Shown here in pieces: positions 30,061-30,720 of a stretch of DNA of 64,000 bases. Position numbers and translations under genes: made by a program. The notes beneath the pieces were generated by a model, which saw nothing but the letters and a program-made list of their open reading frames with translations, had not been told where the DNA came from and did not search any database. Numbering within the stretch: the first letter of the stretch is position 1; the number at the start of each line of letters is the position of its first letter. This DNA comes from a virus (Duplodnaviria; Caudoviricetes): the IMG/VR virus record IMGVR_UViG_3300031134_000001, positions 160,001 to 224,000 of that record; one strand, given 5' to 3'.

Positions 30061-30720
30061 GATCTCCAGTAATAATTTACAGGGGATTAGGATAGTGTGC
30101 GAGAAAAGATGTTTTTCGGCGATAAGCCATGGTTAGATCCTTCGATGGATCGCACTGGACTAATGAAAGCGCTTTGAAAACTGTCTGCTCTGGGAGATCT
30201 TTGATAATTTAGATAAATCTGTTGGTAGGTGTGATAGAACCACACGAGACAACCAACTAGGAGGAGCAGTAACCTTCTGAAAAACCTTCAATGGTTAGTC
30301 GGCCTGCACTTAGCGACGATCGCTATTTGCCTGCATAGGTCGGTTAACAAGTTGTGCTCTTTACATCGGACGTATGGGCCGATGAAGATGGGTTAGTAGG
30401 CTCGCCTGCACTTCGGTGTGGCCGCCCAACGCCCTAGAGCACCGATATTCGTGATGCGTCCCTCAGGGCAGGTGTTATACTCCGGCCACCGACGCGTATT
30501 GGTACCTTTGAATAGCAATGTGCAACAGCCGAATCGGAACGTTTGCATGTTGCCCAGGTCCCACGAATGCTCGTGCACAGCCGGAAGGTGATTGGGTTGA
30601 TCTTCCCCCAGCCCAGTCATGCTTTTGGATGTGTACCGCCAATTCACATCAAATCGATCAAGTGTTGTGTTATGTATCCTGGAGTATTCAGTCAAACGTT
30701 GCTCCAGGCATGCATGTAGT
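30061..30720 (+). ncRNA. large ornate non-coding RNA (about 660 nt), family unknown
   Basis: No credible ORF; at least 15 helices and several pseudoknot pairings found by eye; ends just before tRNA-Tyr; strand inferred from context. Confidence 0.7.

Follow-up and report, generated by a model that had tools for sequence, protein, structure and literature searches.

The tRNA cluster of phage T4 also encodes species 1 and 2, stable non-tRNA RNAs of ~120–140 nt each that are co-transcribed with the tRNAs and released by tRNA-processing enzymes, and whose function is unknown. Few bacterial and phage RNAs without a known function are as striking as GOLLD and ROOL, the latter of which has been described chiefly from rumen metagenomes and Lactobacillales. 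Both are large non-coding RNAs (ncRNAs) of phages and prophages that often lie near tRNA islands (PMC12286853), as a first-pass annotation of the locus described here had correctly noted. ROOL measures ~580 nt and has no known protein partner, and the giant GOLLD RNA sometimes has tRNAs attached to it (PMC12286853). Cryo-EM has shown that both build RNA-only cages (PMC12286853). The ROOL nanocage is homo-oligomeric (octameric) and GOLLD assembles into a 14-mer.

The stretch of DNA analysed, hereafter the window, comprises 64,000 nt (bases 160001–224000) of a virus record of 271,026 bp with direct terminal repeats. At 22603–24288 it encodes a chimallin-family protein, whose orthologues in the related contigs L002 and L016 match Pfam PF25677. 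The element lies on the + strand at 30043–30729, between the stop codon of a tail-like ORF (30042) and the start of a tRNA-Tyr gene (30730), and its conserved core spans ~30055–30723 (~670 nt). The upstream ORF (28045–30042, 665 aa) has weak similarity to Gordonia phage minor tail proteins. Downstream, tRNA-Tyr(GUA) (30730–30815, + strand; called by ARAGORN, 56.8 bits with the Rfam tRNA model) is the first gene of the sole tRNA array of the genome, and the element heads this array, with a 13-nt linker between the 3′ hairpin of its core and the tRNA. The array belongs to an RNA-gene island of ~3 kb that contains tRNAs, two tRNA-like genes scored by Rfam and further conserved, ORF-poor sequence. 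The element runs on the same strand as tRNA-Tyr and the neighbouring RNA genes, has an excess of G and T, unlike the coding flanks, and has no paralogue elsewhere in the same genome.

The size class and genomic niche of the element match those of ROOL, and the tRNA that starts 13 nt downstream recalls the tRNAs attached to some GOLLD RNAs. We compared the locus with all 4227 families of Rfam 15 using cmscan with permissive filters, scanning both 29800–35200 (5.4 kb) and 30030–30735 alone (706 nt). At gathering thresholds, the 5.4-kb region returned tRNAs alone. Within the element, the matches at E ≤ 10 were RsaA (− strand, 18.6 bits, E = 1.6) and sR41 (10.4 bits, E = 9.6), both of which are noise, and the models for raiA, riboswitches and group I/II introns gave no match to it. 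With no meaningful match, GOLLD, ROOL, OLE, HEARO, RNase P, tmRNA, introns and ribozymes are not supported as identities. The first-pass annotation had refrained from assigning the RNA to GOLLD or ROOL, and this caution is borne out by the Rfam 15 search at E ≤ 10.

A highly diverged GOLLD or ROOL, missed because the Rfam models are too narrow, would share with the element its place next to a phage tRNA island and a size range of ~580–800 nt (PMC12286853). We nevertheless consider such kinship very unlikely. Neither GOLLD (RF01998) nor ROOL (RF03087) produced a single alignment at E ≤ 10 under permissive filters, in the 5.4 kb or in the 706 nt, and the homologue from L002, including a large insertion described below, likewise has no match in Rfam, GOLLD included. 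The carrier lineage, moreover, has no detectable kinship with any phage among 50,697 phage records. The element differs from ROOL in having no sequence or structure match to RF03087, in that a multi-pseudoknot consensus like that of ROOL is not demonstrable, and in its carrier, a chimallin jumbo phage sampled from plant surfaces, straw, dairy, food and water. It differs from GOLLD in length (~670 nt versus >800 nt), in giving no match to RF01998 and in that the conserved 3′ core of GOLLD is not recognisable. The element probably represents a large phage ncRNA of a new family, one that shares its genomic niche with GOLLD and ROOL, and we put the probability that it is a functional, stable ncRNA of a new family at roughly 0.6.

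Distribution, conservation and coding potential

Searches with homologues of the upstream protein and of the chimallin identified two further phage types in which the element occurs, represented by contigs L005 and L002. The element of L016 and of contig X14 is identical to that of L005; L003 and L004 match L002 identically (nhmmer, blastn), and L018 and L019 are identical to the window. A fourth version is a metatranscriptome contig, X15. The comparison set thus consists of four distinct versions (window, L005, L002 and X15), three of them full-length and X15 partial. Near-identical copies occur in ~20 runs from ~17 studies, and the samples include phyllosphere and other plant surfaces, straw, dairy, food production, wastewater, fresh water and marine material.

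Protein searches with the tail protein, a 60-aa ORF of the island and the chimallin returned the same three phage types alone. Exact-pattern scans with invariant 20–23-mers of the element found no match in viral, metagenome or genome contigs, and phages, plasmids and E. coli genomes likewise yielded none by blastn. Queries with the tail protein, the chimallin, a chimallin alignment or an AAA protein revealed no related locus in viral contigs, and the element is absent from the distant tail-protein homologues L006–L015. The window chimallin has no tblastn match at E ≤ 1e-5 in the 50,697 phage records, and its nearest counterpart outside the clade, found by an exhaustive HMMER search of 1.84 billion representatives, is 28% identical. 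Judged from these comparisons, the chimallin lineage is a deep-branching and very isolated group of nucleus-forming phages, sampled mainly from plant surfaces, straw, dairy and water.

The window element is 95.6% identical to that of L005 and 96.8% identical to that of L002, with a range of 95–97% over the pairwise comparisons. At four-fold degenerate sites, the window and the L005-type phage are 85.9% identical (five genes pooled, n = 831; 79–97% per gene), and the corresponding values against L002 are 77% for the AAA gene and 86% for the chimallin gene. In the adjacent tail gene, four-fold identity falls to 44–48% against both relatives. A profile in 60-nt bins rises from ~80–85% at the end of the tail gene to 95–100% in the element and drops to 78–80% in tRNA-Tyr, downstream of which further modules of the island have been replaced or deleted between relatives. 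By these sequence comparisons, the element is a discrete block that is conserved well above synonymous sites. The genomes are mosaic, however, and one gene reaches 96.6% at four-fold sites, so that recent module exchange could explain part of this conservation.

The element has 55 variable sites, whose distribution is clustered (index of dispersion 2.7, P < 0.0002), with hot patches at 30163–30197, 30424–30444, 30596–30611 and near 30655, and invariant runs extend up to 63, 61, 48 and 45 nt. Such a distribution, as far as the sequences can tell, is that of a functional molecule in which a few parts at the periphery are free of constraint.

Conservation could also have arisen without selection on an RNA, if the element acted at the DNA level, as a replication, packaging or protein-binding region, or if it were a spacer homogenised recently between co-infecting phages, by recombination or by gene conversion that a homing endonuclease of the tRNA island would drive. 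Such an origin would suit mosaic genomes in which four-fold identity per gene ranges from 44% to 97%, as well as an island whose modules are swapped or missing between relatives and whose array in L002 contains an HNH_3 gene; the modest thermodynamic and covariation signals described below would fit it too. We nevertheless hold it to be improbable. All three pairwise comparisons fall at 95–97% between flanks that are far more diverged, which means that the same exchange boundaries would have to recur. The variable sites are strongly clustered rather than even, predicted folding is specific to the strand of the adjoining RNA genes, and a contig of the element was recovered from an RNA library.

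Every ORF of more than 26 codons, on either strand, is broken by a stop codon or a frameshifting indel in L005 or L002, the indels among the versions measuring 1, 2, 5 and 177 nt. Two 26-codon frames (30056–30136 and 30097–30177) are uninterrupted in all three full-length versions and would have to be the basis of any claim that the element encodes one or more small proteins. That claim has almost nothing to recommend it, however, since both frames fall in a part of the element so close to invariant that chance would be expected to preserve them, and the frame at 30056–30136 shows three non-synonymous and two synonymous changes (variants read by eye) with no evident ribosome-binding site. On these comparisons, the element codes for no protein.

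Predicted folding and covariation

The + strand of the element has a predicted folding energy of −236.5 kcal/mol (z = −4.09), and none of 120 shuffled sequences was as good; the − strand gives z = −0.31. The same comparison with 20 shuffles yielded z-scores of −6.1 (+) and −0.8 (−). Folding is thus specific to the + strand in the energy model. Among 22 random 687-nt windows of the same genome (mean z = −1.7, s.d. 1.5), however, 4 of the 44 strand-windows (~9%) reach −4.1, and the energy signal, while real, is therefore not exceptional for this genome. Sliding windows of 200 nt singled out 30500–30699 alone, at a low power that leaves the tRNAs themselves without a standout.

A total of 119 base pairs have a probability >0.5 independently in all three full-length versions. 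The features that follow are all on the + strand, and the z-scores quoted for single hairpins are inflated because the hairpins were picked after folding. The 5′ hairpin (30060–30090; z = −4.4) is predicted to consist of a GAUCUCC-AG/CU-GGGGAUU stem with an inner GUAA/UUAC; it is not followed by a U-tract on its 3′ side and acquires one mismatch in L002 (30083 G>U). Next comes the invariant hairpin GAUCC-UUCGAU-GGAUC (30136–30151), with a pair probability >0.5 in the window, L005 and L002, whose loop resembles a T-loop in our reading of the sequence. The most variable patch (30163–30197), which accumulates substitutions and 1-nt insertions and has 11 variable sites in one 30-nt bin, is probably a linker or peripheral loop. 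Beyond it lie an invariant two-tier hairpin at 30221–30257, with GUUGGU/ACCAAC and, inside, GUGUG/CACAC (pair probability 0.94, z = −2.4), and an AGGAGG/CCUUCU hairpin at 30259–30280 that keeps its pairs despite two one-sided changes (30261 G>A opposite U30276, and 30277 C>U opposite G30260). The subsequent 55-nt hairpin (30294–30348; z = −3.3) is composed of a 12-bp base, GCA/UGC and an apical UAGCGA-CGA-UCGCUA; its paired positions are invariant, the sole change being U to C at the unpaired 30326.

In the 3′ half, a CAUCGG/CCGAUG hairpin with a 9-nt loop (30364–30384; pair probability 0.91) is followed by a hairpin with a UUCG loop (30389–30428), in which 30401 C>U keeps the pair with G30421. 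An indel-tolerant junction at 30424–30444 contains additional AA and C residues in relatives, and accommodates the 177-nt insertion in L002. A branched 3′ domain (30447–30568), closed by AUUCGUG/CACGAAU, has its pairs predicted in all three full-length versions; its first arm is formed by AUGCGUC/GACGCGU with an inner hairpin at 30467–30487, and its second (30501–30561) contains GCAAUGUGCA/UGCAUGUUGC. The long hairpin at 30573–30636 (24 bp, −35 kcal/mol, z = −5.9) has a variable tip (30596–30611), near which L005 and X15 show two A·C mismatches. The 3′ hairpin at 30671–30716 (16 bp, 13-nt loop, z = −5.4) is invariant and is followed by the linker to the tRNA.

The 177-nt insertion (L002: 8387–8563, at window 30440–30444) occurs in one phage type alone and forms several hairpins of its own in the fold of the whole L002 RNA, for which z is −5.6. 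A 181-nt stretch of L002 that spans most of it (8380–8560) gives z = −2.8. The insertion has no match in Rfam and may represent either an additional domain at the periphery of the RNA or a small mobile element.

The first-pass annotation had portrayed this RNA as ornate, with long-range helices and a three-way crossing set. All of the complementary segments on which that picture was built are present, at or within a few bases of where they had been placed. Perfect complementary 6-mer pairs, however, number 50 in the element versus 51 ± 9 in dinucleotide shuffles, and 7-mer pairs 9 versus 12.8 ± 4.7. With pairings at chance frequency and several of them broken by natural variants, the proposed architecture is not sustained, and its long-range and pseudoknot pairings are for the most part contradicted. 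Four local helices do hold up, namely GTTGGT/ACCAAC, TAGCGA/TCGCTA, CATCGG/CCGATG and ATGCGTC/GACGCGT, which have mean pair probabilities of 0.91–0.96 and are predicted independently in the three full-length homologues. The GCAC-UUCG-GTGT hairpin fares less well: its UUCG loop is unchanged in all versions, but the pair probability is 0.10.

The remaining pairings have a probability close to zero in the nested ensemble or meet stronger competitors. Among the former are GACTAA/TTAGTC, GATCTCC/GGAGATC, which is broken by 30194 G>A, and CTGCTC/GAGCAG, which is broken by 30188 C>A. The long-range ACCTTC/GAAGGT helix, likewise near zero, is broken by 30589 U>C, a change that is compensated within a local hairpin. 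The helix thought to close a 3′ domain (30545–54/30707–17) competes with two much stronger local hairpins. Since a nested ensemble model cannot show pseudoknots, the crossing set was also checked against natural variants. There, ATGCGTC/GACGCGT holds as a local helix, but GCCCT/AGGGC, with a probability of ~0, loses a pair by 30466 G>A, and AGCACC/GGTGTT, also at ~0, suffers from both 30443 C>A and 30473 U>A, while the L002 insertion separates its two halves. The heptamer GCCTGCA does occur three times, as had been noticed (30302, 30329 and 30404), two copies falling inside the 55-nt hairpin and the third inside the UUCG-loop hairpin. We do not find this repetition persuasive: by a rough estimate the chance of some 7-mer occurring thrice is ~0.2, and the third copy is altered by 30408 G>U in L005 and X15.

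RNAalifold of the three full-length sequences yielded 229 pairs, among which one change is double-sided; the covariation term, +0.75, amounts to no net support. For an unbiased test of pair-keeping, pairs with a probability >0.5 were taken from the window alone, and the same substitution types were placed at random paired positions as the null. Under this scheme, 12 of 21 distinct substitution events keep a standard pair, compared with 8.9 ± 1.2 expected (P = 0.023); substitution rates at paired and unpaired positions do not differ significantly (odds ratio 0.65, P = 0.18). The sole double compensatory change converts U30589-A30619 to C-G in L005. Pair 30519/30549 occurs as three types (U-G, C-G and U-A), G-C becomes G-U at 30472/82 and 30474/80, and U30473>A repairs a U·U mismatch in a local hairpin of the branched domain. 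Pair breaks are concentrated in the predicted long-range helices 30186–30194/30433–30441 and 30053/30095, and the local hairpins are mostly intact. Long-range covarying pairs, including pseudoknots (for example 30401/30596), were given no weight, because with two lineage groups any two lineage-specific changes covary. Four sequences that are 95–97% alike allow covariation neither to prove nor to refute an elaborate fold, and the ornate fold is unproven because the sequence set is narrow and near-identical.

Expression and proposed production of the RNA

X15, from a phyllosphere metatranscriptome, is a 505-nt contig (depth 16.9) that lies wholly inside the element and covers 30111–30608; it differs from the window by 25 substitutions and 6 inserted letters. 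The same run holds no contig on 30639–30729, which is equally conserved. Three runs from three studies recorded as RNA hold parts of the element, although contigs from RNA libraries are silent on strand, ends and level and could also reflect DNA carry-over. The element is present in an RNA library, which is supportive but not decisive. The conservation, the lack of a conserved ORF and the metatranscriptome contig together make an RNA product likely, and they uphold the central claim of the first-pass annotation, a discrete non-coding element of some 660 nt (here ~670 nt, + strand) at the head of the tRNA array.

We infer the transcript ends, release by RNase P, action in trans and higher-order fold as follows. 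The island would be transcribed by a phage RNA polymerase as one or a few precursors. Cleavage by RNase P at the 5′ end of tRNA-Tyr (30729/30730) would then free the RNA and set its 3′ end, a production logic like that of T4 species 1 and 2 for a far longer RNA (~670 nt). The long terminal hairpins (30060–30090 and 30671–30716) would protect the ends of a body made of ~12–15 hairpins in a string and one branched domain (30447–30568), and the freed, stable RNA would act in trans during infection. On the + strand, no sigma-70-like promoter was recognised, and there is no terminator-like site from the element to 32326. The 9-mer CGCAAGATC (15 occurrences) was considered as a promoter motif and rejected; its consensus does not extend further, and codon usage seems to account for it.

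Alternatively, the element could be a cis-acting 5′ leader of the tRNA-island precursor that is degraded after processing, a promoter-proximal region whose hairpins set precursor stability, the order of processing by RNases P, E and Z, or export from the phage nucleus. The short linker to tRNA-Tyr without an intervening terminator and the strong hairpins at both ends are what such a leader would be expected to show, and the restriction of the X15 contig to 30111–30608 fits a processed or partly degraded piece. A depth of ~17 in an RNA library, however, suggests a stable species, and near-invariance over ~670 nt, with unchanged runs of 45–63 nt, goes far beyond the usual constraint on leaders and spacers, in an island where other stretches have been replaced or lost between relatives. 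We consider the leader a real but distinctly less likely alternative to a stable RNA that is released and acts in trans.

It is conceivable, though doubtful, that the stable RNA we favour represents a third, independent class of giant ornate tRNA-island phage RNA, the first in a chimallin jumbo lineage. If so, its sequence would be almost frozen on account of dense tertiary or quaternary RNA–RNA contacts, for instance in an RNA-only homo-oligomer, or else because, during infection, the RNA interacts specifically with the translation or tRNA apparatus. Since an unrelated RNA of the same size would occupy the same genomic position, the niche would seem to have been filled repeatedly, which suggests some general but still unknown requirement in phages that supply tRNAs of their own. 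For structural studies the element would be a new target that is both compact and very well conserved, and with several further odd RNA genes in the same 3 kb, the locus is a good place for phage RNA biology.

Other features of the island and its flanks

The tail-like gene at 28045–30042 is saturated for synonymous divergence against both relatives (44–48% at four-fold sites, compared with ~86% in backbone genes). Its product is 65–87% identical in amino acids to those of the relatives and has homologues of 53–58% identity in unrelated phage contexts; on this evidence it looks like a swapped host-range cassette. On the other side of the element, tRNA-Tyr (30730–30815) differs at ~20% of positions from an allele common to L005 (8685–8770) and L002 (8844–8925), compared with 3–4% in the upstream RNA. 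The differences affect both strands of the acceptor and anticodon stems, and the tRNA-Tyr module seems, from these alignments, to have been exchanged independently of the RNA upstream.

Two segments of the island, 30954–31080 and 31436–31553, give full-length Rfam tRNA scores (55.1 and 49.5 bits) and are not called by ARAGORN; they are 127 and 118 nt long because of insertions of 50–60 nt. About 440 nt (window 31084–31523), including the third tRNA-like RNA, are absent from L002, which has extra sequence further down its array (10234–10788), a gene for an HNH_3 endonuclease included. The mosaic structure of the island may be the work of homing endonucleases.

A block at 32776–33207 is 98.6% identical to L002, with 97–100% per 60-nt bin over most of its length, and is more conserved than any neighbouring gene. 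It starts inside a weak RAGATH-1 hammerhead match (32755–32861; 22.2 bits, E = 2.6, gathering score 56.3) and ends at a terminator-like hairpin with a T-run (33169–33188). We regard this block as a probable second large ncRNA of the island. Finally, two small ORFs, at 31591–31746 (51 aa) and 31867–32049 (60 aa), exactly fit the spaces between RNA genes. All assemblies have them as called genes, their DNA is 97–100% identical between relatives, and they have no homologues outside the clade; both may be further RNA genes rather than proteins.
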